Of a stretch of DNA of 31,768 nucleotides, positions 1 to 13,755 are shown piece by piece. Location of the stretch: NCBI GenBank assembly GCA_041746255.1, contig JBGTHM010000084.1:1-31768 (forward strand), read 5' to 3'. Below the pieces are notes generated by a model that searched no databases, was not told the origin of the DNA, and saw only the letters and a program-made list of their open reading frames with translations. Source of the DNA: Fibrobacteria bacterium (GTDB taxonomy: Bacteria; Fibrobacterota; Fibrobacteria; UBA11236). A program made the position numbers and the translations under genes. Each line of letters starts with the position of its first letter. The first letter of the stretch is position 1.

Positions 1-3000
1 CGGCCAGCAAAGCCGGTTTCTTGGCATGGGCTTCGGCGAAGTAGCCGGCTGCCTTCCCCGGATTTCTTTCACCATGGCCACGAGCCACCATAACCAGCAA
101 CTCCGCGCTGGCATCGGGTTTACGCGCCAACTTTTCCAGCAAATCCAGGTGGCGAATCACCTGGTCTTCACTGACGATAACAGCAGGAAGCAGCGCCTCG
201 TATTCGGAATTTCCGGGTGCATTGGAAATAGCCTTGGCCAGGTAGTCGTAGGCATTATTCCTGTCTCCGGCCGCAAGATAATCCTTGGACAACAGGAATT
301 GCACATCGTGCGCCTTCGGATTGGCGCGCTCTGTAGTGATAAGCACATCACGCAACTCCGACTTCTTTCCCTGCTTTTGCAGAAGGGATATCAGTTTCGT
401 TCGCACGGCGACATCCTTGCCGTCCAACTCAAAGGCGCGGCCATAGGCCTCGGTCGCCTTCGCAACATCTCCCTTGGCGTCGTAGGCGGCGGCGAGTTTG
501 AGAATCAAGGCCCGGTCGCGCCCATCGGACTCCAAGGCGATTTCATGGTACTTCAATGCCAGCGGCGCTTGTCCCAAACGTTCAAACAATCCGGCAAGAT
601 GCATATTGTATGCTTTATCCCCCTTGCGACTCGGGGCCAATTCCTCAAAGATTTTGGCGGCATCTGCGGTCCTGCCGCTTTTTTCGTAATTGCGCGCCAA
701 CTCAAGCCGGGCGCCTTCATCTCCGGGGTTTACGGCAACGTAACGTGCATGATACTCCAACCCCTTGGGGTTTTGCGGTCCCAGTAGATCAGATAATTCC
801 TTCAGCAAATCGGCGTCTTTGGGCGTTTTCGCCAACTTCATTTCCAATCGGGGGATCAGTTTTTCCTTTTGCAGCGGATTACGGAAGAAGGCAATGAGAA
901 ATTCCAGGGCTTCTTCGCTGTCCGAATGTTTGATAAGGTATCGTTCATATTCCTGAGCGGCAGCCGAGCGCTGTTTGGCCTCAATTAGCGACCGGATGTA
1001 CTTATCCCAATCGGAGCGGTTATCCGCCAAATTGGGAACTTTTTTGAAGGCCGGAACCGCTTTGTCGAACTGATTGGTTTCGTATAAGCTCAAGGCCAAC
1101 ATGCGACTTGAAGCCAAACTATGGCTGGGGAGCTTTTGCAATACTGATGCCGCCCGTCCGAAATCGCCCTTGCGAAAATAGATTACGCCTTCCGCCTCTC
1201 GAAGCCTGTCACCACTATCTTTTTTCTGCCTGCTTAGGACCTCCTCAAGAAAAGCGCTGGTATCGATGTCGGCTTGAGTACCAGCGATAACCGCGCTGAT
1301 ACGCCGCTGGAATTCCCTTTCGGCCTCTGCTTTGGCCCTGCGGTCTGCCTCGATAGCCTCCAAACTGTCGGTGCGGGCTTTGGCCCTGCGCTCCGCCTCC
1401 TCCCGCGCCAATTTCGCCGCCTCTACCCGGGCGATGGAATCCGCAGTGATTTTCGCGCGGCGATCCCTTTCCGCCTGCGCTATGGAATCGGCACGGACTT
1501 TCGCCTTCAGTTCCCTCTCCTCCTTGGCAATACGTTCAGCCTCGGCGCGAACCGCTGCTTCCGCTTTGGCCTTCGCTTCAGCTTCCACCTTGGCTCTCGC
1601 ATCCGCTTCCGCCTTAGCCTTCGCTTCTGCTTCCGCCTTAGCCTTACGCTCAGCTTCGAGAACGGCCAAACTGTCGGCGCGGGCTTTAGCCTTACGTTCC
1701 GCCTCCTCCCGCTCCAATTTCGCCGCCTCTACCCGGGCGATGGAATCCGCAGTGATTTTCGCGCGACGATCCCTTTCCGCCTGCGCTATGGAATCGGCAC
1801 GGACCTTTGCCTGCCGCTCCCTCTCCTCCTTAACCATACGTTCAGCCTCGGCGCGAGCCGCTGCTTCCGCTTTGGCCTTCGCTTCCGCTTCCACCTTGGC
1901 TCTCGCATCTGCTTCCGCCTTGGCTCTCGCATCTGCTTCCGCCTTCGCCTTCGCTTCTGCTTCCGCCTTGGCCTTTGCCTCTGCTTCAGCCTTAGCCTTT
2001 GCTTCCGCATCCATCTTGGACTTCGCATCTGCATCCGCTTTGGCCTTCGCATCGGCTTCCGCCTTGGCTTTCACCTCTGCTGCCATCTTAGCCTTTGCGT
2101 CCGCTTCAGCCTTAACCTTCGCCTCTGCATCCATCTTGGCCTTTGCCTCTGCTTCAGCCTTGGTCTTCGCATCGGCTTCCGTCTTGGCCTTGGCCTCTGC
2201 TTCTGCATCCGCTATGGACTTCGCTTCCGCTTCCATCTTAGCCTTTGCCTCTGCTTCCGCTTTGGACTTCGCTTCCGCTTCCATCTTGGCCTTTGCCTCT
2301 GCTTCAGCCTTAGCCTTCGCCTCTGCATCCATCTTGGACTTCGCCTCTGCTTCAGCCTTAGCCTTTGCTTCCGCATCCGTCTTAGCCTTCGCATCCGCTT
2401 CAGCCTTGGCCTTAGCCTCTACTTCCGCCTTGGCTTTCACCTCTGCTGCCATCTTAGCCTTCGCCTCTGCATCCGCCTTAGCCTTCGCTTCTGCATCCAC
2501 TATGGACTTCGCTTCCGCTTCCATCTTGGCCTTTGCCTCTGCTTCAGCCTTAGCCTTTGCTTCCGCATCCATCTTGGACTTCGCCTCTGCATCCGTCTTA
2601 GCCTTCGCCTCTGCATCCGCCTTGGCCTTCGCTTCAACATCCATCTTGGACTTCGCATCCGCTTCCGCCTTGGCCTTCCCATCCGCTTCCGCCTTGGCGG
2701 CAATGGCAACTGCAGGATCGGGAATAGTTTCACTCGGCGCTGGAGTTACCGCTACCGTACCGGACTGCTTCGGTGGTTCCGTAGTTTTGAGTTCCGCCGC
2801 CCGCTTTTGGAATTTTGCTCTTTCCGGAGCCGAATTCGTGAATAACGCCGCCTTCTCATAAGCATCCTTCGCGCCCTGCGCATCGGTTTTTTCCAGTGCC
2901 TCGGCGAGACCGGCCCAATGCTCCCAAGACTCGTCCTGCACTTCGAGTAATTCCCGGTAGATTTTCGCTGCTTTTTCCCGTTCTCCGGCTCGGAGATAAG

Positions 3001-3801: not shown

Positions 3802-4737
3802 CTAGGTCGTTTCCCAGGGAAATGCCAATACTTCGTGAAGCCCGTCAGTACCGGCCGCCAAAGCTATCAACCTGTCCAATCCCAATGCCACACCCGCGCA
3901 AGGCGGCATGGAAACGGACATTTCCCTTAAGAATTTTTCGTCCAGCGGCAGAAGGGGCTTATCCTCGAGTAAACGTCTGGAATTTTCGGCTTCGAAGCGG
4001 CTCCGATACTCGGATGCATCCAATAACTCTAGATAGGCGTTGCACAACTCTACCCCCCGGTAATACATCTCGAACCGATGGGCCGTTCCCTGGTTTTCGG
4101 CATCGAAAACGGCCAAGCAGGCCAATTCGGCCGGAAAGTTGTGTACGATCACCAGGACATTGGCGGGCAGAGTAGCTTCCACATAATTGCCCATGATGTA
4201 ATTGAGATAATCGGCCCTGGCGGTAAAGCGTGCCTCATCCCCCTTGTCGGCCAAGAAGGCGGCGCAATCCGGCACGGACACCCGCAAAGGATCGATCCCG
4301 GTAGCGGACCGGAAACAATCGGCGTAGGCGTACCGCGCCACAGGTATATCCCCCAGCAAGGTACGGCAAACACCCGCCACCTCCTCCATTAAATCGGTAA
4401 GGGAAAAACCTTTACGATACCATTCCAATAGGCTGAACTCAGGGTTATGCCAGCGTCCGGATTCGCCATTTCGAAAAACCTTGGAGATTTGGAAAATGTC
4501 GGGATAGCCTTGGCATAGCAGCCGTTTCATGTGGAATTCGGGTGAGGTTTGCAAGAATACATCTCTGCCCTGCGCCCTTTTCCCCGTGCCATCCGGGAAG
4601 AATCGGGTTGCGAAAACGTCGATATGGCAATCCAGGGAAATTCCGGCGGACAACACGGGAGTTTCCACTTCCAATACCCCTCGCTTGTGGAAATAAGCCC
4701 GTAGGGCGGACAGGCAATCGGCGCGAAAACGCGCCAT
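3802..4737 (-). CDS. epmA: EF-P lysine aminoacylase (EpmA/PoxA/GenX)
   Basis: 311 aa, catalytic domain of a class II LysRS without the anticodon-binding domain: EVETP, LQTSPE, FRNGESGRWHNPEF, GVALGLDRL. Directly downstream of efp. Confidence 0.95.
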   Translation of the reverse strand: MARFRADCLSALRAYFHKRGVLEVETPVLSAGISLDCHIDVFATRFFPDGTGKRAQGRDVFLQTSPEFHMKRLLCQGYPDIFQISKVFRNGESGRWHNPEFSLLEWYRKGFSLTDLMEEVAGVCRTLLGDIPVARYAYADCFRSATGIDPLRVSVPDCAAFLADKGDEARFTARADYLNYIMGNYVEATLPANVLVIVHNFPAELACLAVFDAENQGTAHRFEMYYRGVELCNAYLELLDASEYRSRFEAENSRRLLEDKPLLPLDEKFLREMSVSMPPCAGVALGLDRLIALAAGTDGLHEVLAFPWETT

Positions 4738-4745
4738 TTCCGGGG

Positions 4746-5312
4746 TTATTTGGCGCGCTCCACGTAGGCGCCGGTTCGGGTGTCGACTTTGACGCGCATA
4801 CCCTGATCGAGGAAGAGGGGAATATCGATTTCGGCGCCGGTTTCAACCGTCGCTTTTTTGGTCACACTGTTGGCGGTATCGCCTTTTACCGCAGGTTCGG
4901 TGTAGGTGATGGTCAGGTCCATGAAAATCGGGGGGGTAACGGAAATCGCCTTTTCGCCCCAGAAGGCAATTTCGCATTCGGTGCTTTCCAGCAGCCATTT
5001 CTCCGCGCCGTCCATGCCGTCCTTGGGAATCTCGACCTGCTCATAGGATTTGGTATCCATGAAAGTCCAGGTTTCGCCGTCGTTGTAGAGATATTGCATG
5101 GTGGTATAAGTGATGTCGGCTTCCTGAAAGGTGTCGCCGGACTTGAAAGTCTTTTCCAACTGGCGGCCCGTAAGCAGGTTTTTCAGCTTGACGCGGTTGA
5201 AGGCCTGGCCTTTTCCGGGCTTGACGAATTCGTTCTCGACGATTGCGCAGGGTTGGCCATCCAGTAAAATGCGCATTTTCTTCCGGAATTCATTTGTACT
5301 CACCATGCCCAT
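4746..5312 (-). CDS. efp: Translation elongation factor P (188 aa)
   Basis: VKPGKGQAF loop, YLYNDG, TEPAVKGDT and VDTRTGAYVER motifs. Start reassigned to ATG at 5312 because GGAGG lies 6 nt upstream; this makes the modifiable lysine residue 34. Confidence 0.97.
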   Translation of the reverse strand: MGMVSTNEFRKKMRILLDGQPCAIVENEFVKPGKGQAFNRVKLKNLLTGRQLEKTFKSGDTFQEADITYTTMQYLYNDGETWTFMDTKSYEQVEIPKDGMDGAEKWLLESTECEIAFWGEKAISVTPPIFMDLTITYTEPAVKGDTANSVTKKATVETGAEIDIPLFLDQGMRVKVDTRTGAYVERAK

Positions 5313-5438
5313 GCGAAACCTCCAATAGCCCAATTCGGTGCAAAAACGACCGAATAAGGCCGCTGCAAGACCGGTTAAATTTACATTATCAGGCGAATTC
5401 CTCAAAACCTCGCCGGAGAGTCGGACTCATTCGCTTCC

Positions 5439-6458
5439 ATGCCACTTCAGATCTACTCCGAAATCATGCCTGAAAAAGCCTGGCAACAAGACCTGGCTTC
5501 GGCTTGGCGCGACTCTCGCTCCTTGTGCCGTTTTCTGGAATTGGATAGCGAGTCTCCCCCCTACCCTTTGGCATTTAATACCCCTTTTCCCTTTTTGGTT
5601 ACCCAAAGCTTTGCCTTGCGGATGCGTCCCGCTGATTGGTTCGATCCCCTTCTTCTCCAGGTTTTACCCCGTGAAGAAGAAAAGACGGTTGTTCCGGGAT
5701 TCGTGCAAGACGCCGTTGGGGATGCGGCAGCGGAAGTGGTTCCCGGACTTTTACACAAGTATGGACAACGGGCATTGGCGGTGGTAACCGGAAATTGTGC
5801 GATTCATTGTCGCTATTGCTTCCGCCGGGAATTTCCCTATGCGGATTTGCCTAAGTCGGAAACACGCTGGAAAGCCGCCTGGGATTATTTACGGGGTAAT
5901 CCGGATATCAATGAGCTGATTCTCAGCGGGGGCGATCCGCTCTTTCTGGACAATGCGCGCTTGGAGCGCTTTTTACATCCCCTGGAAACCACACCCCATA
6001 TCCAAACTTTGCGGATCCATACGCGACTACCCATCGTATTGCCATCGCGGATAGAGAAGGGTTTGCTGGAGATTTTGTCGAAATTCCGGAAAAACAGTCA
6101 GGTTGTAATTGTGATCCATGCCAATCATGCAAATGAATTGCGCGAAGACGCCTCGGCAGCGTTAGGCCGTTTGCGACAAGCGGGGTGCCTCCTGTTTAAC
6201 CAGGCCGTTCTACTCAAGGGTGTAAACGATACGGTGGAGGCTCTGGAAAACCTATCGCGTTCACTTATACGCGAAGGCGTCGCGCCCTATTACCTGCACC
6301 AACTTGACCGCGTAACCGGTACGGCCCATTTCGAGGTTTCCGAAGCAATCGGCAAAAACCTGATGCGCCAATTGCGGGCCCGGCTTCCCGGCTATGCCCT
6401 GCCAAGTTGGGTGCGGGAGATTCCCGGAGAGGATTCCAAAACCCCGTTGGCTTTTTAA
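5439..6458 (+). CDS. epmB: EF-P beta-lysylation protein EpmB (KamA-family radical SAM lysine 2,3-aminomutase)
   Basis: CAIHCRYCFRR radical-SAM motif, ILSGGDPL, LRIHTRLP, NQAVLLKGVND, PYYLHQLD. Short YjeK-like length (339 aa) and divergent from efp. Confidence 0.93.
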   Translation: MPLQIYSEIMPEKAWQQDLASAWRDSRSLCRFLELDSESPPYPLAFNTPFPFLVTQSFALRMRPADWFDPLLLQVLPREEEKTVVPGFVQDAVGDAAAEVVPGLLHKYGQRALAVVTGNCAIHCRYCFRREFPYADLPKSETRWKAAWDYLRGNPDINELILSGGDPLFLDNARLERFLHPLETTPHIQTLRIHTRLPIVLPSRIEKGLLEILSKFRKNSQVVIVIHANHANELREDASAALGRLRQAGCLLFNQAVLLKGVNDTVEALENLSRSLIREGVAPYYLHQLDRVTGTAHFEVSEAIGKNLMRQLRARLPGYALPSWVREIPGEDSKTPLAF

Positions 6459-7285
6459 GGAAAAACATTCAGGAAAACCGCGAAATGATAAGAAGCTTTA
6501 TCGCGATAGCCCCATAAACTATGGCCGCCTTTGAGGCCCAAGTGCGTTTTCGGCGTGAGGCGGGTTTCCACCGATAAGCCCGGCACAATCCCTGCGCTGC
6601 GATCGGCCGCCGGGCCCTGCGCACCCCATAACGATTGCGATACCGAAACGCCTCGGCTCCAATAATATGATTTGTAATAACTGTATAGATAAAATTCTCC
6701 TTTGAGTCCGGGATGGAAACGCTTCCAGATTTTCACGGAGGGAGAGAGGCTGAAGGAGCCTCGTTTGGCTAGGCCATCGTCGAGGGAATAGCTTCCGTCC
6801 GCCTCCAGGGCGCCTCCCGCACCCGAGCCGAGTAAAGTGAGAGGGAGCCGCGCGGCCGTTCCCAGCACTAATTGCCGGTTACCCTGGCCTATCCAAGGAT
6901 CGCCATTCCGGGAATCGTAACCCGCCGGCAGCGAAAAGCCCAGCCGCGCATTATAGAGTCCCCACCTCTTGGATAGATAGGCGGTAAGGTCTCCCGGATC
7001 GATACGGTTTACACTTCCCTCCGGCAGGCTTTTCACCGTCCATTGCCACGGGAGGCCGATATGATATCCGTAACGCCCCAATCCTCCATAAAGGGATACC
7101 GCCAACAGTTTATTGAAGACGTACTTTTCAATTTCGCCTTCATAGGGTGAAATTTCAAATCCATCCAATTCACCATAGGCCGCCCAGCTTCCGCTGGAAA
7201 GGCTGATAAGCCCAAGTGAGGTTTTCTCTCCGATTTCCGGCATGCTGACAATGAGCAGCAAAAGTAAAAGCGATGGGAAGACCAT
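6455..7285 (-). CDS. Hypothetical secreted protein, possibly an outer-membrane beta-barrel
   Basis: Hydrophobic N-terminus (MVFPSLLLLLLIVS), Gly/aromatic-rich amphipathic strands, C-terminus YHFAVFLNVFP. Starts 16 nt after the Omp85 stop; its stop overlaps the convergent epmB stop (TTAA). Confidence 0.65.
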   Translation of the reverse strand: MVFPSLLLLLLIVSMPEIGEKTSLGLISLSSGSWAAYGELDGFEISPYEGEIEKYVFNKLLAVSLYGGLGRYGYHIGLPWQWTVKSLPEGSVNRIDPGDLTAYLSKRWGLYNARLGFSLPAGYDSRNGDPWIGQGNRQLVLGTAARLPLTLLGSGAGGALEADGSYSLDDGLAKRGSFSLSPSVKIWKRFHPGLKGEFYLYSYYKSYYWSRGVSVSQSLWGAQGPAADRSAGIVPGLSVETRLTPKTHLGLKGGHSLWGYRDKASYHFAVFLNVFP

Positions 7286-7301
7286 TACCCTGCGGTCCCA
7301 G

Positions 7302-8924
7302 TTAAAAAGAATTCAAGACGCGTAAATGCAGGTATCCGTTCCCAGGAGACCGTTGGGGATTCAAAGCATAACTGATGCCGAAATTCCATTCCTTTCCTCC
7401 CAAGTCCATGCCGAGGCCGTATCCCAGCACTTTTTGCCAGTAAACGCCCTCGTGTCCGGGCCGGTTTATCAGTCCGGGAACGGCGAATAACGTTACCGCC
7501 GTAGCGGCTCCCATCCAGTATTGCGCTTCCAGGTTTCCATAGAAATAAAGGTTGGTGGAGAAGGCATTCTCCGGGTATCCCCGCACTGTGTTGGCTCCCC
7601 CCAGTAAATGGCGGTCTCCCCGGTTCTCGCGTGCGCGCAAAGGCCAGTTCGCCCCTCCCACGAAACGCCCATGTCCCATGAAGCGGCCTCCCAGGTTTTG
7701 CCATACGGCGAGCGTTCCGGAACTTTTGGCGAAATAGCGGGAGGTATCGGCCTCGGTTCGGCGAATGGCGCGCAGGGTTTGCGAAAAACGATACCCACCC
7801 AAGGTTCTGGAGGCGCCGCGTCGAGCGTCGTATATAAACTCCACCCCGCTGGAAAATGCCCGGGAATCTTCGCCGCTTATGCGATCGCTATTGGATTGTC
7901 GTCCGAACAGGATGCGATAACGCGACCGGAAATCAAGATCGTGAAACAACCCCAGCTCCGTATCGATTTCGCTATAGACAGTATCCTGCAAAAGCAGGTT
8001 GAATTCGAACGTGGCTCCCAAAGGCAACAGTGGCAACCAGGGCTCCTGGTAGAAGAGGCTCACCTCCCTCTCGGGGCCGCCGCCGGGAGAGGAACGGGAA
8101 GCAAAGGTGAAATCGAGATCCCGGGCCGTTCCCAAGAGGTTGACTAATCGAATGTCGACGAATCCGGTCAATTGGTCGATATCTTCCCTTTCGGAATCGA
8201 AGCCAAGCAGTCCGTTGATATGGCTTCCCCGGTAATCCTGCAGCCGTAAGGCCGGATACAGGAGATTGCGCACGGAATCGCGATAAAGCGTAGCGCGATC
8301 GAGGCTTTCGAAATATCCCGTGCGTGCAAGTTTTTCCAATGCCAGGTTCACGCGGCTCTCGCTATAGGTTTCCCCGTATCGTAACAGCGACAGCCTATCG
8401 AGAACCTCAGGGCGCATACGGCTTCCCTCCGCACGAAATCCACCGAATTTGAACCCGGCGCCGCCGTGAACCTTCACCGAAACATCGATGGCCGCTTCAC
8501 CCTTGACCACCTTGAAGTCCATATCCGCCCGCGCGAAGGGATGCCCGGAATCCAGGAAATGTTCGCTGAAAACACGGCTCAGATTTTCCAGATTTTGGCG
8601 GGATGCCGTCTTGCCTATAAAAGCCCCTAAACGGGTTTCCCCAGGTTGCGACGTAAACTCGCCGGTTACCGTTACGGAATTGATACGGTAGAGAGAGCCC
8701 TTCACGATGTTTGCCGCTCCATCGCCTTCCAGATCTGAACTGTCTTCGACGGAGGCGGCGAGGTAACCTTCAGCCATGGCCTCGCTCAGAGCCGACCAAA
8801 CCGAATCGGGAGGAGGCGATTCTGGAGCCAAGGCCAGTACCGATGGGCAAAACCAAAATATGGCCAACAACGCCCGCAAGTAGGCTTTCCCGCGCCGAAA
8901 TCGCTTGCCTTCCCGTATTCGCAT
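7302..8924 (-). CDS. BamA/TamA-family (Omp85) outer-membrane protein with POTRA domains
   Basis: Signal peptide, POTRA-like segments (SGHPFA; YSESRVNLALEKLARTGYF), NLLGTAR at the barrel start, loop-6 motif LGGANTVRGY, and GYGLG plus C-terminal YLHLRVLNSF. At 540 aa it is TamA-sized. Confidence 0.85.
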   Translation of the reverse strand: MRIREGKRFRRGKAYLRALLAIFWFCPSVLALAPESPPPDSVWSALSEAMAEGYLAASVEDSSDLEGDGAANIVKGSLYRINSVTVTGEFTSQPGETRLGAFIGKTASRQNLENLSRVFSEHFLDSGHPFARADMDFKVVKGEAAIDVSVKVHGGAGFKFGGFRAEGSRMRPEVLDRLSLLRYGETYSESRVNLALEKLARTGYFESLDRATLYRDSVRNLLYPALRLQDYRGSHINGLLGFDSEREDIDQLTGFVDIRLVNLLGTARDLDFTFASRSSPGGGPEREVSLFYQEPWLPLLPLGATFEFNLLLQDTVYSEIDTELGLFHDLDFRSRYRILFGRQSNSDRISGEDSRAFSSGVEFIYDARRGASRTLGGYRFSQTLRAIRRTEADTSRYFAKSSGTLAVWQNLGGRFMGHGRFVGGANWPLRARENRGDRHLLGGANTVRGYPENAFSTNLYFYGNLEAQYWMGAATAVTLFAVPGLINRPGHEGVYWQKVLGYGLGMDLGGKEWNFGISYALNPQRSPGNGYLHLRVLNSF

Positions 8925-8927
8925 AAG

Positions 8928-11900
8928 CTAAAACGCCGCCCTGGCTTCCGCCGAAAAACGCTGCAACAAATCCTGGCGGTCCGGTTCCTTGCGGGCCACA
9001 TAATTCAAGTACAAGAACATATGGGTTCCCACCCGGAAATTGGCCCCCGCCTCCATACGCTGGGTCAGTCCCAATCGATGCCCCCCCGCCGCGTAGAGAC
9101 CCGCCTCTCCACTTCCTTGAAAATACTCCATGCCATATTCGAGGAATGCACGCCCGTCATAAAGCGCTCCTTTTTCCACGCGCAGTCTCGGCTTATACCC
9201 GAACCACGACGCTTTCCCGTCTAAGGAACCTGGAACGCTTCCTTCGATATGGCTGACTTCGAATGAAGGTTTCAAGGCGTAATGGCGCGGAAAATGCCGC
9301 GTAATTTCACCGCCCCCGGCCTGGCTTCGACCTTCGGCGCCTCCACCCGACTCCCGCAAACTGGTCCGTCCCCGGTAATCGTAGCTTTGGTAAAAAGAGT
9401 ATTCCCAACGCGAGCTGACTTCATGGCGGAAATCCGTTTTCTCGCGCCAGCGCTTTTCCCGGTAGGCCCGCTCACCCGCAGCGCGATCGTAAATTCGCTC
9501 CAAGGTGATATTCGCCACACGCGCGGCGCCCGGGTGCGTCCAGGACAGCCGGCCTTGGTAGCGGCTGGCGCCGGAAAAAACCCCGTCGATTTGCGCGTCG
9601 GTAAAAAGGGGGATAAGACTTTCTACGCTTGTGCTGTCCTGGTGTCGAAGGTCCCAATCCAATTGCAATTGGATATCGGCGAGAAAACCGCCGGGCGAAA
9701 ATCCGAAGCGGGCGGGGCGGAGAAACACGTCCCCCAGCCACCCCAATTCTTGGTAAGGTCTTTCTCCCAACCCTTGATCGCGTTGCAAACCTACGAGTAT
9801 GAAATCGCCTCCCACTTCGACGGGTTGGTAAAGATCCAGCGTTTCGTCGTAGATGTAATCGCCTTGGCCGTCGGGTACGCGGGCATAACTTTCGATCAGC
9901 GGAATCTGGGCGGTGCGGTTTACCCGATAGGTGGAGGAAAATGAATAGCCCCGAGCCGCATCCTGTACTTGATTGTTCCATTCGGCGAGTACGAAATCCG
10001 CCGTCTCCGATTCGGCCGGATAGTCGCCTTCGGGAGACAGCCTCCACTCTTCGTGCTTACGCAGCGAATAAAAAATATCCGATGACCATGGACCCATCCG
10101 GAACAAATTGGCCGCATGCCTGAAGCCGATGGCTCGCACCGAATCGCGCGGGGAATCAAGCCGGCCCCCGAAATTGGAATATTGCCGCAGTACCGAAATT
10201 CCCGGCGTCCATTGCAATCGCTCCCACCACCTGGGAAACGCCAGGGAAAAATCGGCTTCTTCTTTGATGGAACGGGAAAACTCCATATCCGTCCCCTGGT
10301 CGGCAAGCCATTCGTTCCGCGTCCAGGCCGCCTCCGGTGTCAGACCACCCGCCTCCAGCCGGGCTAAAGCGGACTGCCGGTAATTATCCGCGCGCAAAGG
10401 CGATAACGCTTTTCTCGCGCCGGTTTCCATGCGGATAAAAGTTCTATCCCCTCCCATTTTGGCGAAGCCCACTTGCCGAATCGATTGGAGATCGTCCGCT
10501 CGCGCTCCGGATATATCCCGTGTGTGGGCTTTAGCCCAACCCATTTCTCCGCCCACGCGAATATTGCGCAACAGGTGATCTTCCAATGTTATTACATCCG
10601 AACTGAAATCCCTTTCACCGGCCTCCGGTTCCAGATTCCAGGCGTCACGAAAAGCGCGAGGATCGATATATTGTTTGAAAGCCTGGAAATTTGGGGACCG
10701 ACGGTGGTTATCGAAACCCAGGCGCAGCCGCCCGAACCCTCCCTCCCCGAAGGGGCGGCCCCAAATTTGTCCCATGCGATATTGCGTCATATATCCGAAG
10801 TTGTCCTCATTATCCAGGGTCGAAAAGAGGTTGCGATCCAATTGCGTGCCCTTTACCACCAAGTGGGATTGATGGTTCTCTCCTAATTCCAGCCGGGTTT
10901 CGGCCACGGCCGCAGACTGGCGCCGAGGCGGCGTAATGCGTCCCAGGGACGTATCCAGGAGGGGATCACCATCCCCGAGTGCCCGTAATTTTTCAATTTT
11001 GAGACTGTCGAGAGAAATCCTGAGAGGATGGTCCTGGTTTTCCCATTCCTGAATCGCCCGTACCGACCATTGCCAAGCGCCCTGTCCATCCTCGACCTCG
11101 CCTCCGTAGAGATAGCGCGGAAAATCCTGATCCGTATATTGGAACTCCACCGAGAAGAGGTTTTCGCTGGATACGATGACTTCCTTGAGGAAATCCAGCC
11201 TGCCTTCACCATAGTCGATGGTGTAATGGCGGCCCCGCTGCAATTTTTCCCCGTTGCGATAGACGGTTTCCGTGCCCGAAAGTACGGTGATGAAACGGTT
11301 GCCGTCGCTTCCTCTCAAGTAATAACCTCGCTGCTTCCCATCCACTCCCCAAAGCGTATCGGTTTGGTATTGCCCATTGCTGCTGGAAAAATGCCCCCGC
11401 ACCTTCAGCTCTTCGCGACCATACTCGGCTTGTACGCCTTCAACCTTGGCGGTATAAGCATCCACTCCCGACTTCCCGTGACGCAGCAGATAATCCCCCA
11501 GCATATAGGAGTAGTCATCGCCGTAAACGCGCACGAAAATGGCATCCACCTCCTTAAGCGTGGCGGTGTTGCCTTCGGGCTGTATGGGTACGTTCTGGTC
11601 GGATAAATGCCCTTCGATGAAAACGTTCTTGGCCAATTGTCCCTTGATGTCGAGAAACAGAGCCTGGTCCAAACCGAGCCCGCCTCCCTCGCCGAAAGAA
11701 AGGGAGAGCGAATGGCTGCCCCCGTATTCCAGGTTATAGGGCTCGGCTTCCGCAGCGGAAGGTCGGGCGAAACCGGAGCTGGACATTTCCTTTCCCAATT
11801 GAGTGGACTCGTTCCATATCGGTACCTCTTCCTGGCGTAGCCAGGGTCCTGGTCCTTGAGAAAGCAAAGGAGAATGGTAAATATCCAGGCAGAGGGTATC

Positions 11901-12209
11901 GGAATCGCCGGGTTGAAAGGCCAACTGCAGACTCGCGGAATCCGGAGCGAGGCGGTAATCCCTTTCGCGCAAAAGCAGTCGCCCATTGAGGTGGACCGTT
12001 AGGAGATCTATGGCCCCCAGACCCGAGGAGGGCCGCCATTCGCTCCCTTCAGGCCCGGTATGACAATGGGTTCGTTTCAACCATCCCGGCGGACCGGCGG
12101 TTGAACGGGGATCGGCATGAGGCGACGGGAGGAGTATCCCGCCGGTGACCATGCCGATCAATAGGTATAGCTTAACCACTTTGCGCGAACCCTCCACGGC
12201 ATCCCGCAA
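8928..12209 (-). CDS. Large (~1,090 aa) putative outer-membrane beta-barrel protein of unknown function
   Basis: Long ORF with an N-terminal hydrophobic segment, many amphipathic strands and C-terminal FSAEARAAF. Contains DQNVPIQPEGNT and two YxxDY/ERDY-type modules. Annotated start is TTG; GTG at 12179, with GGAGGG 10 nt upstream, is an alternative. Confidence 0.75.
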   Translation of the reverse strand: MRDAVEGSRKVVKLYLLIGMVTGGILLPSPHADPRSTAGPPGWLKRTHCHTGPEGSEWRPSSGLGAIDLLTVHLNGRLLLRERDYRLAPDSASLQLAFQPGDSDTLCLDIYHSPLLSQGPGPWLRQEEVPIWNESTQLGKEMSSSGFARPSAAEAEPYNLEYGGSHSLSLSFGEGGGLGLDQALFLDIKGQLAKNVFIEGHLSDQNVPIQPEGNTATLKEVDAIFVRVYGDDYSYMLGDYLLRHGKSGVDAYTAKVEGVQAEYGREELKVRGHFSSSNGQYQTDTLWGVDGKQRGYYLRGSDGNRFITVLSGTETVYRNGEKLQRGRHYTIDYGEGRLDFLKEVIVSSENLFSVEFQYTDQDFPRYLYGGEVEDGQGAWQWSVRAIQEWENQDHPLRISLDSLKIEKLRALGDGDPLLDTSLGRITPPRRQSAAVAETRLELGENHQSHLVVKGTQLDRNLFSTLDNEDNFGYMTQYRMGQIWGRPFGEGGFGRLRLGFDNHRRSPNFQAFKQYIDPRAFRDAWNLEPEAGERDFSSDVITLEDHLLRNIRVGGEMGWAKAHTRDISGARADDLQSIRQVGFAKMGGDRTFIRMETGARKALSPLRADNYRQSALARLEAGGLTPEAAWTRNEWLADQGTDMEFSRSIKEEADFSLAFPRWWERLQWTPGISVLRQYSNFGGRLDSPRDSVRAIGFRHAANLFRMGPWSSDIFYSLRKHEEWRLSPEGDYPAESETADFVLAEWNNQVQDAARGYSFSSTYRVNRTAQIPLIESYARVPDGQGDYIYDETLDLYQPVEVGGDFILVGLQRDQGLGERPYQELGWLGDVFLRPARFGFSPGGFLADIQLQLDWDLRHQDSTSVESLIPLFTDAQIDGVFSGASRYQGRLSWTHPGAARVANITLERIYDRAAGERAYREKRWREKTDFRHEVSSRWEYSFYQSYDYRGRTSLRESGGGAEGRSQAGGGEITRHFPRHYALKPSFEVSHIEGSVPGSLDGKASWFGYKPRLRVEKGALYDGRAFLEYGMEYFQGSGEAGLYAAGGHRLGLTQRMEAGANFRVGTHMFLYLNYVARKEPDRQDLLQRFSAEARAAF

Positions 12210-12212
12210 CGC

Positions 12213-12998
12213 CTATGCGTCGGGACAGGGTTCGAGGGTTTTTTTCTCCGGTGCATAACAAAGGCCCGCCGCCGTGGATTGGCCCGAGGCGGTTTCCGGA
12301 AGCTTAAAATACAAGCTCCCGTATTTTTCTCCCGCGAAGGTAGTGGGCGCGGTTCCACTTTCGGATCCACGTTTGGGGTTCATATAATCATCGAAACATT
12401 TCCATTCCGAGCCGGCCCGGCAGCATAAATCCGGACTATAGGGAAGCCAGACGCATTGTTGTAAACCCAGGGAAATATCGAAAGTCTGTCTTAACTGTAA
12501 TTGGCTGCTTTGCCCGCGCAACGACATTTCCGCGAAACGCGCGACCTTGCCCCTATTTTTGTCTATGGCTGTAAAGGCCCCATCGGGGGTCCAGAATAAA
12601 TCGATGGACTCCAGCCCTCCCAAAGGCCAGGGACGCGGTAAGGACATGCAGCTTAGGAGCTGCGCGTAACCGTCGAATTGACAGATGCGATGACCGGCCT
12701 TATCCAGTAAGAAGAAGTGCCCCCGGCGGCCCGCCGCCGCCTGAACGGGGTAGAAAGGCATCTCCGGAACGGAAAGGGAGAGCCAGCGCGTTCGGTCCTG
12801 CAAATAGGCGCGCGCGGAATCGGCCGGGATTCCGGGATTCCATTTCTGATAGGTCAAGTCGGTGAAATTAAGCAACAGTACCGATCCCTCCCCGGGAACG
12901 ATGGCATCCACCGATCGCGGTGCGAGGGGCCCGTTTTGCACGGTCGGCGCGCATGCCGATAAAACCGCCAGCACGTACCCGAGAAGAATTTTCAGCAT
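12213..12998 (-). CDS. Putative lipoprotein, Cys-rich, with an NHL/beta-propeller-like segment
   Basis: Lipobox LSAC (Cys16), eight further Cys, and GHFFLLDKAGHRICQFD resembling an NHL repeat. 3-nt gap to the next gene. Confidence 0.7.
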   Translation of the reverse strand: MLKILLGYVLAVLSACAPTVQNGPLAPRSVDAIVPGEGSVLLLNFTDLTYQKWNPGIPADSARAYLQDRTRWLSLSVPEMPFYPVQAAAGRRGHFFLLDKAGHRICQFDGYAQLLSCMSLPRPWPLGGLESIDLFWTPDGAFTAIDKNRGKVARFAEMSLRGQSSQLQLRQTFDISLGLQQCVWLPYSPDLCCRAGSEWKCFDDYMNPKRGSESGTAPTTFAGEKYGSLYFKLPETASGQSTAAGLCYAPEKKTLEPCPDA

Positions 12999-13065
12999 GC
13001 GAATATTGTAGCCTCTTTTACCCCAAAAAACGATAGGAGCGCCTGCCGGTAGGGTATTTGCGCGA

Positions 13066-13099
13066 AGTGCGCAAAATCCTGCGCAGAACTCTGCGCACT
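13066..13099. promoter_or_regulatory. Putative upstream activator sequence: three TGCGCA palindromes at 12-bp spacing within a 34-bp quasi-palindrome
   Basis: AGTGCGCAaaatccTGCGCAgaactcTGCGCACT, with TGCGCA at 13068, 13080 and 13092 and partial copies at 13059 and 13103. About 110-140 bp upstream of the predicted sigma54 start site. Confidence 0.6.
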
Positions 13100-13180
13100 C
13101 ACTGCGCCTTCCGAGTGGCTTATTCCCCCAAAGGCCTGGAAATCGAAGAAATACATGCCTTTCACCGTACCCAAAATAAA

Positions 13181-13195
13181 TGGCACGGCCATTGC
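13181..13195 (+). promoter_or_regulatory. Sigma54 (-24/-12) promoter of the ECF sigma gene
   Basis: TGGCAC-GGCCA-TTGC matches TGGCAC-N5-TTGC exactly, with an A-tract just upstream and a sigma54 activator gene encoded next door. Confidence 0.8.
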
Positions 13196-13209
13196 GTTAC
13201 CCTCATTCC

Positions 13210-13755
13210 ATGATGAATACAATGACCCAATCCGCTCCCACTACTCTTCACCTTGACGCTTGGTACCAAAGCCACAAATCCGCGGTTATGCGTATTTGCA
13301 GCCGATACGTATCGGATAAGATGTTGGCCGAAGACCTCGTGCAGGAAATCTTCATGAAGCTTATCGACGGACGCTCAAGTTTCATGGGACTCAGCCAGGA
13401 GTCGACATGGATCCATCGCGTCGCGGTGAATCATTGCATCGACCATTTGCGACGGAGTAAGCGGCGCCGGGAGTTGTTGGACCAGTTCAGCCCCGAACTC
13501 ATGGTGGATTACGAAGAGGCTGACCCCGTCGCGGAAGAGAACCCCCTACTGGGATTACTGCGAGAGTCGCTGGAAGAACTGGATATGGGTTGGAAACAAA
13601 TCGTCTTCTTACGCTACGAAGTTGGAATGACTCATGTTCAAATCGCCGAAATTTACGGGCTCTCGCGGGTGGCCATAACCCGTCGGCTCAATCGCTTTCA
13701 ACAGCGTCTGGAAAAGAAGTTGCGCGCCAAACAAAGCTTAAGGGAAGTCAATTAG
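13210..13755 (+). CDS. ECF-type (sigma70 group 4) RNA polymerase sigma factor
   Basis: Region 2: AEDLVQEIFMKL and STWIHRVAVNHCIDHLRR. Region 4: LRYEVGMTHVQIAEIYGLSRVAITRRL. The track's start at 13180 falls inside the sigma54 promoter, so 13210, 13213 or 13222 is more likely. Confidence 0.9.
   Translation: MMNTMTQSAPTTLHLDAWYQSHKSAVMRICSRYVSDKMLAEDLVQEIFMKLIDGRSSFMGLSQESTWIHRVAVNHCIDHLRRSKRRRELLDQFSPELMVDYEEADPVAEENPLLGLLRESLEELDMGWKQIVFLRYEVGMTHVQIAEIYGLSRVAITRRLNRFQQRLEKKLRAKQSLREVN

Follow-up and report, generated by a model that had tools for sequence, protein, structure and literature searches.

A four-gene envelope cluster in a Fibrobacteria genome

We analysed a 31,768-nucleotide stretch of DNA (hereafter the window) from a Fibrobacteria bacterium (contig JBGTHM010000084.1 of assembly GCA_041746255.1). 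On its minus strand lies a cluster of four genes, encoding a lipoprotein, a giant predicted beta-barrel protein, an Omp85 protein and a small beta-rich envelope protein (Table 1). A preliminary description of this DNA had read the cluster as a four-gene envelope operon and a candidate undescribed assembly or export system, and the layout behind that reading was confirmed. The list of open reading frames (ORFs) holds four co-oriented genes separated, in order from the lipoprotein, by 3, 3 and 16 nt, and N-terminal export signals are seen in the translations of all four. The lipoprotein carries the one lipobox (L-S-A-C, with the lipidation residue at Cys16), and the barrel protein, the Omp85 and the small protein begin with hydrophobic, signal-like segments. 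As had been described, two of the proteins end in phenylalanine, the barrel protein in EARAAF and the Omp85 in VLNSF, and the small protein ends in LNVFP. The closest named relatives of the cluster proteins come from metagenome-assembled genomes (MAGs) of Fibrobacteres or Fibrobacteria.

In the public annotation, the barrel protein is called at 952 aa, from a start 141 codons downstream of the TTG start given in Table 1. The product of this shorter call would be without the signal peptide and the N-terminal domain that are kept in homologues. Because homologues span 95–100% of the 1,093-aa query and the structural model has an N-terminal helix, the long form was taken throughout. A scan of positions 6200–13400 found no sigma-70-type promoter and six terminator-like sites, fewer than the mean of 10.6 in shuffled sequence; therefore, nothing in the scan speaks against a single transcript.

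Table 1. Genes of the cluster and predicted features of their products (window positions; all genes on the minus strand)
Feature	Position	Residues or length	Strand	Basis
Lipoprotein gene, ATG start; product a predicted beta-propeller	12213-12998	261 aa	minus	ORF list; AlphaFold2 model, fold matches
Giant barrel gene, TTG start	8928-12209	1,093 aa	minus	ORF list
Signal helix of the barrel protein		10-23		DSSP of model
Small N-terminal beta domain of the barrel protein	11874-12080	~44-112	minus	DSSP, pLDDT
Disordered linker of the barrel protein		119-156		DSSP, pLDDT
Inserted small beta domain, after ~8 barrel strands	11130-11342	~290-360	minus	Profile matches
Barrel proper, Phe-terminated	8931-11741	~157-1093	minus	DSSP, fold alignments
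Omp85 gene; product a BamA-like paralogue with ~3 POTRA domains and barrel, VRGY in loop 6, C-terminal Phe	7302-8924	540 aa	minus	ORF list; Pfam, profiles
Small fourth gene; product a small beta-rich envelope protein ending in FP	6455-7285	276 aa	minus	ORF list

The large protein is predicted to form a single giant barrel

A homologue search for the barrel protein in 5.8 billion clusters returned 60 matches, from which a 43-sequence alignment (A1) was built. All 60 homologues are unnamed or annotated as hypothetical and none has a Pfam domain. Half of them (30/60) are full-length, at 37–74% identity; the others are similar across the N-terminal third, and the named ones in this group belong to Neomarinimicrobiota, Chloroherpetonaceae and Ignavibacteriaceae. 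The 1,093-aa protein itself matched no Pfam family, neither Plug nor TonB_dep_Rec appearing at E up to 1, and in the Pfam scan no TonB box, Plug, receptor domain, OstA/beta-taco, two-partner secretion (TPS) or haemagglutinin domain was detected. A sequence-profile search of the PDB gave one chance match (E 0.98). In the ESM Atlas, the 30 nearest clusters were all hypothetical; SprA_N appeared at 0.86, which we treat as a lead only.

AlphaFold2, supplied with the A1 alignment, produced a confident model, with a predicted local distance difference test score (pLDDT) of 83 and a predicted template modelling score (pTM) of 0.69. Counted from DSSP, the model has 41 strands of at least 8 residues between residues 160 and 1092, in an almost uninterrupted run of beta structure, and it is lean, with short loops and no large cap. 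When the model was compared with 48,161 representative chains, 34 of 50 fold-match rows ran from residue 166 or earlier to residues 1089–1093. Such rows cover both termini, which suggests that the first and last strands are neighbours in one barrel. We infer from the model that the large protein forms one giant barrel of about 38–42 strands. AlphaFold2 has been reported to reproduce the 36-strand barrel of SprA, the translocon of the secretion system of type 9 (T9SS), without templates (10.1101/2022.10.09.511469, in the part of that source available to us), and this success lends some confidence to the giant-barrel model.

An arrangement of two tandem barrels (residues ~160–750 and 755–1093) was considered and set aside. 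Ushers and VDAC do align with residues 154–747 and CymA with residues 707–1060, but at a root-mean-square deviation (rmsd) of 5.7–11.8 Å. To the extent that the model can be trusted, tandem barrels are also disfavoured by the 34 end-to-end rows and by an alignment of SprA over 749 residues.

The likeness of the model to other known barrels is generic. Foldseek returned SlpA, SprA, MtrB, TonB-dependent receptors, LptD and ushers, all with template modelling (TM) scores of 0.32 or less, and no chain of the machinery for beta-barrel assembly (BAM) of Flavobacterium johnsoniae or Porphyromonas gingivalis stood out in the fold searches with the barrel. In agreement with the preliminary description, the large protein is not LptD, a TonB-dependent receptor or a member of the TamB/AsmA group. 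For LptD, there is no Pfam match, Foldseek scores (TMt) lie at 0.19–0.28, and a protein matching Pfam LptD_2 (E 1.8e-66) is encoded elsewhere in the genome, on contig C123. Pfam PF04453 found nothing in the genome; it also misses the Bacteroides control genomes, so this result carries no weight. For a TonB-dependent receptor, the Pfam domains named above are missing even at E up to 1 and TMt is at most 0.32. A TamB/AsmA identity has no Pfam match behind it either, the model is of closed-barrel type with a Phe end, and the TamB of this genome lies on contig C8, adjoining a 703-aa Omp85. The genome also encodes its own BamA, as an 823-aa frame on contig C125; separate bamA and tamB genes, for which the preliminary description had proposed a check, are thus both present away from the cluster. 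PorF of P. gingivalis, which is described as having no F. johnsoniae counterpart (PMC7463736, as far as the accessible part of the paper goes), was set apart from the barrel by description.

Two barrel orthologues from one genus, G006:C50:1701-4751 and G016:C72:3118-6168, each contain one in-frame TAG, which could be the mark of a pseudogene, a sequencing error or readthrough.

The giant barrel resembles SprA in scale and shares a small domain with it

In structural comparisons with VIA-align, SprA ranked first both among Foldseek's top 1,000 (8GL6_A, Z 16.4, 684 aligned residues, rmsd 8.8) and among the 48,161 representative chains (6H3I_A, Z 15.8, 749 aligned residues, rmsd 9.0). The SprA alignment spans residues 156–1093 of the model and residues 132–2401 of the chain. 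Porins align over 240–360 residues only, and SprA is the sole match in which 684–749 residues are aligned over the whole barrel. Like the giant barrel as modelled, SprA/Sov (36 strands; 6H3I, 8GL6) is a single chain with a barrel of comparable size; it also shares the small beta domain and the distribution in the Fibrobacterota–Chlorobiota–Bacteroidota (FCB) superphylum, and the two proteins co-occur. SprA/Sov is, however, about 2,000–2,700 aa long and bears a large extracellular cap, whereas the barrel protein has 1,093 aa and no such cap. To our knowledge, SprA has no dedicated Omp85 or NHL partner.

At the sequence level, the NCBIfam SprA model TIGR04189 scored 14.7 bits against a cut-off of 200 bits, with residues 308–356 of the barrel protein (window 11142-11288) matching model positions 603–651. 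Among eight members of the barrel family tested, four matched only TIGR04189 positions ~604–688. The true SprA of this genome is encoded on contig C37 by a 1,922-aa ORF (603 bits summed). The barrel protein was not filed as a SprA because it falls below the TIGR04189 threshold. Profile–profile comparison with hhalign gave 60 aligned columns at 55% probability when A1 was compared with the genome's single SprA. With an alignment of 20 SprA sequences from the fetched loci, columns 273–377 of A1 matched SprA 579–679 over 97 columns (95.5%, E 1.4e-8), which corresponds to the inserted domain. The N-terminal domain (columns 36–104) matched the same SprA domain (579–649) at 51%, the first barrel strands (columns 138–284 versus SprA 134–290) reached 17%, and the rest of the protein stayed at 1.1% or less. 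In control comparisons, the barrel family and the Omp85 family matched at 0.2%, and the Omp85 family and SprA at 0.1%.

Flagellar genes (rod-binding/SLT protein, FlgN, FlgK and flagellin-like) were found on contig C34 of the window's own genome (G000), at L094:799-5323; the FlgK encoded there has the small beta domain by which the barrel protein is linked to SprA.

The neighbouring Omp85 is a BamA-like paralogue

The 540-aa Omp85 of the window matched Pfam POTRA (E 2.1e-7). It had no match to Pfam Omp85 at E up to 1, nor was it among the ten PF01103 matches in the genome. The NCBIfam model for BamA (TIGR03303) gave E 2.8e-9 and 35.9 bits, against a cut-off of 297 bits, and the model for TamA gave 24.2 bits against a cut-off of 625 bits. 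More was learned from a profile (A4) of 13 Omp85 orthologues taken beside barrel genes. This profile aligned with BamA structures at E 1.6e-47, query positions 63–506 covering BamA 208–664 (POTRA3–5 and the barrel), and with TamA at E 6e-26. Pfam scans of the 13 orthologues found POTRA in 12 and Omp85 in 11, with weak ShlB/FhaC matches in six. In the VRGY motif of loop 6, R448 and G449 do not vary, and Y450 hardly does. Judged by these profiles, the 540-aa protein is a BamA-like paralogue with approximately three predicted POTRA domains. The model and the database scans agree with the earlier observation that an Omp85 of TamA size here adjoins a very large barrel.

Three more familiar identities were tried for this protein and rejected. 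It is too distant from the housekeeping BamA (about 800 aa), at 540 aa and 35.9 bits, and the separate 823-aa BamA frame lies on contig C125. It falls below the TamA cut-off, and TamB on C8 has its own, 703-aa Omp85 beside it. A TpsB protein of the FhaC type was also considered; the neighbour here is a barrel without a TPS or haemagglutinin domain, and the ShlB-family matches are weak.

The lipoprotein is probably a diverged NHL-type propeller

Scanning 1.84 billion representatives in full, HMMER recovered 41 relatives of the lipoprotein; none of the 39 aligned family members matched Pfam (NHL, PQQ or any other family) at E up to 0.01. The AlphaFold2 model (pLDDT 86.7, pTM 0.82) is all-beta, with about five to six four-strand blades by DSSP. 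The best Foldseek matches were NHL domains (Brat, Thin and TRIM71, TM ~0.45), and in the VIA search the Mei-P26 NHL domain came first (Z 11.1 over 202 residues, rmsd 3.9), followed by Brat (10.9) and NHL-2 (10.5), with other propellers at Z 9–10. Among the fold matches, tied with many propellers, was also a propeller chain from BAM of P. gingivalis (Z 9.7); BamB was not among the matches listed. The preliminary description had drawn an analogy between a propeller-like lipoprotein and BamB. The protein does model as a propeller, but the analogy holds for the general fold only, since the best matches are to NHL domains and not to the PQQ-type eight-blade fold.

The position of the gene points the same way as its fold. 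At all 11 non-Fibrobacteria loci scanned that carry the triad, the gene upstream of the barrel encodes a Pfam NHL protein; three Fibrobacteria versions of the upstream gene are without a Pfam match. When the lipoprotein family was compared with these NHL partners by hhalign, the probability was 37% (E 3.6e-4) with 39 sequences and 6.6% with 4. Within the phylum, the NHL-partner profile found a match directly upstream of the barrel gene in four genomes (G009, G018, G021 and G024). The lipoprotein family was present in all four genomes of the window's own family, always just upstream of the barrel gene, and in none of the 37 other phylum genomes; likewise, a jackhmmer search over the fetched loci found lipoprotein relatives in Fibrobacteria loci only. 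Fold and position together make it probable that the lipoprotein is the barrel's propeller partner, of a diverged NHL type.

Propeller, barrel and Omp85 form a conserved gene set with nested distributions

The distribution of these genes was followed in two samples, one of 41 genomes of the phylum, including the window's own, and one of 81 Bacteroidota genomes. In the phylum sample, an Omp85 gene was counted as adjacent when it matched A4 at E 1e-25 or better, shared the strand of the barrel gene and was its immediate downstream neighbour; in Bacteroidota, the Omp85 subfamily was scored as present at E 1e-35 or better. The barrel was found in all 41 phylum genomes and SprA in 40, the exception being a genome (G028) that is 95% complete. 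Such adjacency was seen in 22 of the 41 genomes, distributed by family as 4/4 in f1, 12/14 in f2, 4/4 in f7 and one genome each in f5 and f8. For the other 19 genomes, the best A4 match was on another contig or there were BamA-like matches only.

A degenerate-motif scan of species genomes detected at least 588 relatives of the barrel. Among the best 80 loci, the barrel ORFs are about 1,130–1,230 aa long where complete, and thus not SprA-sized. Twelve of these 80 loci have an Omp85 gene directly downstream, and they come from Fibrobacteria, a KSB1 bacterium, a MAG labelled Cytophagia and unclassified MAGs. Strong Omp85 orthologues (506 and 534 bits) are also encoded elsewhere in Chlorobi-labelled and Ignavibacteria genomes, and two Bacteroidota have weaker ones (209 and 231 bits, versus 57–83 bits for their BamA).

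In the Bacteroidota sample, the barrel was present in 58 genomes, SprA in 64 and the Omp85 subfamily in 51. Barrel and SprA occurred together in 58 genomes, SprA alone in six and the barrel alone in none, with 17 genomes having neither. Similarly, barrel and Omp85 occurred together in 51 genomes, the barrel alone in seven and the Omp85 alone in none, with 23 having neither; the six SprA-positive genomes without the barrel are also without the Omp85 subfamily. Within this sample, the barrel is therefore limited to SprA-encoding genomes. SprA was likewise found in 5/5 further barrel-bearing genomes from other lineages. Altogether, the propeller, the giant barrel and the BamA-like Omp85 make up a conserved three-part gene set whose distributions are nested. 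The four-gene unit of the preliminary description thus stands in part: barrel and Omp85 are co-located and co-distributed across phyla and three of the genes form a conserved module, but the small fourth gene is not kept with them.

Five Bacteroidota genomes have the barrel and Omp85 genes about 6 kb apart on one strand. At four loci of a single Bacteroidota clade (L117–L120, in genomes G070, G050, G060 and G065), the upstream neighbour of the barrel gene is an NHL gene. Between barrel and Omp85, these loci encode a ComF-like phosphoribosyltransferase and a phosphate acetyltransferase, together with a 1,170-aa protein with Ig, cadherin and He_PIG repeats whose gene is divergent from that of the Omp85.

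Other neighbours recur at some loci. At L016:12743-13588, L018:13464-14306 and L117:108-911, the gene directly downstream of the barrel-linked Omp85 gene encodes a UbiA-family prenyltransferase (E 1e-39 to 4e-42). The loci concerned are a KSB1 locus, one from an unclassified MAG and one from a Bacteroidota genome; in other lineages, the UbiA gene may thus recur as a fourth part of the cluster. Genes for LolC/E-like permeases (MacB_PCD plus FtsX) are found just upstream of the barrel gene at L026, L027, L028 and L075. L026 bears the label Bacteroidetes and the other three that of Ignavibacteriales or Melioribacteraceae; three of the four loci have a NUDIX gene on the downstream side. Two MAGs labelled 'uncultured Bifidobacterium' (L011 and L012) carry this diderm operon at 38–47% identity, and these bin labels are probably wrong.

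The small fourth gene and the surroundings of the cluster

For the small protein, the search of 5.8 billion clusters found only four other homologues, and none of the four family members scanned matched a Pfam family. It was matched in 4 of the 41 phylum genomes, namely its own and, weakly, three others, where the match lay on a contig other than that of the barrel; in none of the 40 other phylum genomes was it beside the barrel gene. A jackhmmer search over the fetched loci found no relative of it. In the ESM Atlas, it fell near hypothetical clusters and a Phenol_MetA_deg barrel cluster (0.96), which serve as leads only. The small fourth gene is lineage-specific and lies outside the conserved module; it would be a recent add-on in the close relatives of the window's bacterium. 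A distant paralogue of the small protein is encoded at G000:C99:77595-78317 (E 1.7e-14).

The genes around the cluster are of housekeeping type, with EpmA-like, EF-P and radical-SAM EpmB-like genes at 3802-6458, and further neighbours encode a sigma-54 response regulator, a histidine kinase and an SMC protein. The EpmB-like gene (5439-6458, plus strand) is convergent with the small fourth gene, and its stop overlaps the 3' end of the latter by 4 nt (6455-6458). On the other side, a gene for an extracytoplasmic function (ECF) sigma factor (13180-13755, plus strand) is divergent from the operon, and it is possible that this factor is a dedicated regulator of the cluster. At three Bacteroidota loci (L031, L037 and L047), the gene directly downstream of the barrel gene likewise encodes an ECF sigma factor.

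DISCUSSION

The reading that we tentatively favour, while granting it slightly less than an even chance, is that the cluster specifies a self-contained module of the outer membrane, with a barrel of about 40 strands, an NHL-type propeller and an Omp85 insertase dedicated to this client, together acting as a large-pore machine. The barrel would be a single chain on the scale of the T9SS translocon SprA, at half its length. The Omp85 paralogue would fold and insert this oversized barrel, either as a client-dedicated insertase or by staying bound to it. The propeller, presumably diverged and lipid-anchored in the window's lineage, could dock at the periplasmic mouth of the barrel as a plug, chaperone or cargo receptor, and the finished barrel might be a wide conduit through which folded proteins or polymers pass, in envelopes where type 9 secretion operates as well. 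The earlier suggestion of an Omp85 dedicated to a very large barrel, with a propeller-like lipoprotein, is borne out to the extent that comparative data allow. A broader claim, that the FCB superphylum carries a second, so far unrecognised giant-pore machine alongside the T9SS, built from an NHL propeller, a BamA-like Omp85 of its own and a barrel that at about 40 strands exceeds SprA, and that this would be a new translocon or surface-assembly system, we consider possible but doubtful.

Comparison with known systems helps to place such a module. It resembles the translocation and assembly module (TAM), an offshoot of the BAM principle, in that a TamA-sized Omp85 with about three POTRA domains is encoded beside a large partner. 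The partner in TAM, however, is the inner-membrane-anchored TamB/AsmA protein, whereas here it is an outer-membrane barrel, and the Omp85 profile fits BamA (E 1.6e-47) better than TamA (6e-26). With BAM, the module shares a BamA-like Omp85 and a beta-propeller lipoprotein, but the Omp85 has the equivalents of POTRA3–5 only, against the five POTRA domains of BamA, and BamB is a PQQ-type eight-blade propeller whereas the best matches here are NHL-type six-blade domains. Two-partner secretion (TpsB/FhaC plus TpsA) also places an Omp85 beside one large dedicated partner. There, TpsA is a secreted beta-helix with a TPS domain and TpsB has two POTRA domains; the module has an integral barrel ending in Phe and about three BamA-like POTRA domains. 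LptD–LptE and the expanded lipopolysaccharide (LPS) translocon of Bacteroidota likewise combine a large barrel and a lipoprotein in an FCB envelope. LptD has an OstA/beta-taco domain, which was not detected in the giant barrel, and the module lipoprotein is a predicted propeller and not LptE-like.

The barrel itself may already have been glimpsed. In 2021, two families of large unannotated barrels exceeding SprA in strand number, 002 and 003, were predicted from contact maps to be single barrels of 40 and 38 strands (1,194 and 849 sequences, respectively; PMC8346858). The giant barrel family has a similar strand count and, going by that count and by the portion of the paper available, may be one of the two; that portion gives no partners, gene context, distribution or function for them. 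In the literature, we found no description of a SprA paralogue, of an NHL/Omp85/giant-barrel system or, in work on the Fibrobacter T9SS, of this module. The term undescribed, as used in the preliminary description, thus fits the module but not barrels of such a size.

Several observations weigh against the module reading. The co-occurrence counts are uncorrected for shared ancestry, and all 17 SprA-less Bacteroidota genomes are small (1.8–2.8 Mb), and joint loss of many envelope genes may have occurred in them. A T9SS without the barrel was seen in 6 of the 64 SprA-bearing Bacteroidota, so the barrel is not an obligate part of that system. Seven of the 58 barrel-bearing Bacteroidota are without the Omp85, which means that the barrel can be made without it; by SprA score, these seven resemble the group from which the SprA model was drawn. 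In the rest of the best 80 loci (Bacteroidota, Ignavibacteria and Chlorobi-labelled MAGs), the neighbours vary and barrel and Omp85 are mostly unlinked. On the structural side, strand number and closure are read from DSSP and from alignment ranges, and the SprA Z scores of 15.8–16.4, at an rmsd of ~9 Å, tie with those of small porins (~15). Common ancestry of the giant barrel and the SprA barrels is possible, with sequence homology limited to one small inserted domain. The same TIGR04189 positions also match the FlgK gene in the window's genome, and some barrel family members weakly match phage distal-tail domains, which indicates that the shared SprA-type domain is promiscuous. Finally, the proposed functions (insertase or permanent partner, docking and conduit) are deduced from sequence comparison.

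Other readings were also considered. The Omp85 could be a working partner and not an insertase: barrel, Omp85 and propeller would then form a permanent hetero-complex that translocates substrate, the POTRA domains taking cargo as in two-partner secretion or Toc75 and the barrel serving as exit pore of a second T9SS-type translocon. The absence of the Omp85 from every barrel-less Bacteroidota genome (0/23), the adjacency of the two genes across phyla, the SprA-like scale and shared domain of the barrel, its restriction to SprA-bearing Bacteroidota and the weak ShlB/FhaC matches in 6 of 13 orthologues would all suit such a complex. We nevertheless judge it unlikely: the Omp85 profile is far closer to BamA than to TamA, no TpsB structure was among the matches listed, the module has no conserved neighbour that is a candidate for its cargo, and seven of the barrel-bearing Bacteroidota genomes are without the Omp85. 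It is improbable, too, that the barrel is a structural, diffusion or uptake channel, for large polymers for example, with no link to secretion, in which case the Omp85 would merely help to fold it and the match with the T9SS would stem from joint loss in genomes that are reduced and host-associated. No known nutrient channel comes near the width that a pore of about 40 strands would have, the Pfam scan detected neither a TonB box nor a Plug or receptor domain, and a conserved propeller and a private Omp85 suggest a machine and not a porin. The lean model with its short loops and without a large cap does fit a channel, as do the housekeeping or varied neighbours in Bacteroidota (TonB-C downstream in 3 of 57 neighbour proteins scanned) and the small size of all 17 genomes that have neither SprA nor barrel.

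We also weighed the possibility that the barrel is a subunit of an enlarged FCB machine, either the expanded translocon for LPS and surface lipoproteins (as an LptN-like barrel, for example) or the enlarged BAM. Such machines have extra barrels, and some of their subunits are conserved in FCB bacteria, according to the accessible parts of 10.64898/2026.10.03.756453 and PMC12611786; the LolC/E-like genes upstream of the barrel gene at four Ignavibacteriales-type loci, and the P. gingivalis BAM propeller chain among the lipoprotein matches (tied, as noted, with many others), can be read in the same sense. LptN, however, found in Bacteroides thetaiotaomicron, is a 22-strand barrel and an invariant part of the Bacteroidota core, and LptP and LptT, not LptN, are named as conserved in other FCB phyla in what is available of 10.64898/2026.10.03.756453. 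Compared by description, our barrel has about 40 strands, it occurs in only 58 of 81 Bacteroidota and in none of the 17 SprA-less ones, and no BAM chain of F. johnsoniae or P. gingivalis stood out in fold searches. Enlarged BAM complexes have been linked to complex FCB proteins such as SprA, with no dedicated Omp85 mentioned in the part of PMC12611786 at hand. Membership in a machine of this kind thus appears very unlikely. Least credible is that these are unrelated envelope genes co-oriented by chance. Conservation does not extend to the fourth gene, and many Bacteroidota have the barrel gene standing alone, but the strictly nested pattern (51/7/0/23) speaks against it and, because the adjacency of barrel and Omp85 recurs in 22 of 41 phylum genomes and at further loci in other phyla, the module is not a chance arrangement.

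A client-dedicated module of barrel, propeller and Omp85 would bear on an open question in outer-membrane biogenesis, namely how barrels far beyond the usual 8–26 strands are folded and inserted. A barrel of about 40 strands that keeps company with a private BamA paralogue across lineages would offer a natural client–insertase pair in which to study it, and a compact model for pores on the SprA scale. No genome sampled from the phylum is without the unnamed barrel family, which also occurs in the majority of Bacteroidota with a T9SS; cellulose degraders and gliding bacteria are among the members of these groups. The family is thus a widespread envelope component for which we found no description of function in the literature. 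If the barrel is a conduit, it would represent a new export route in a superphylum whose secretion is thought to use SprA.

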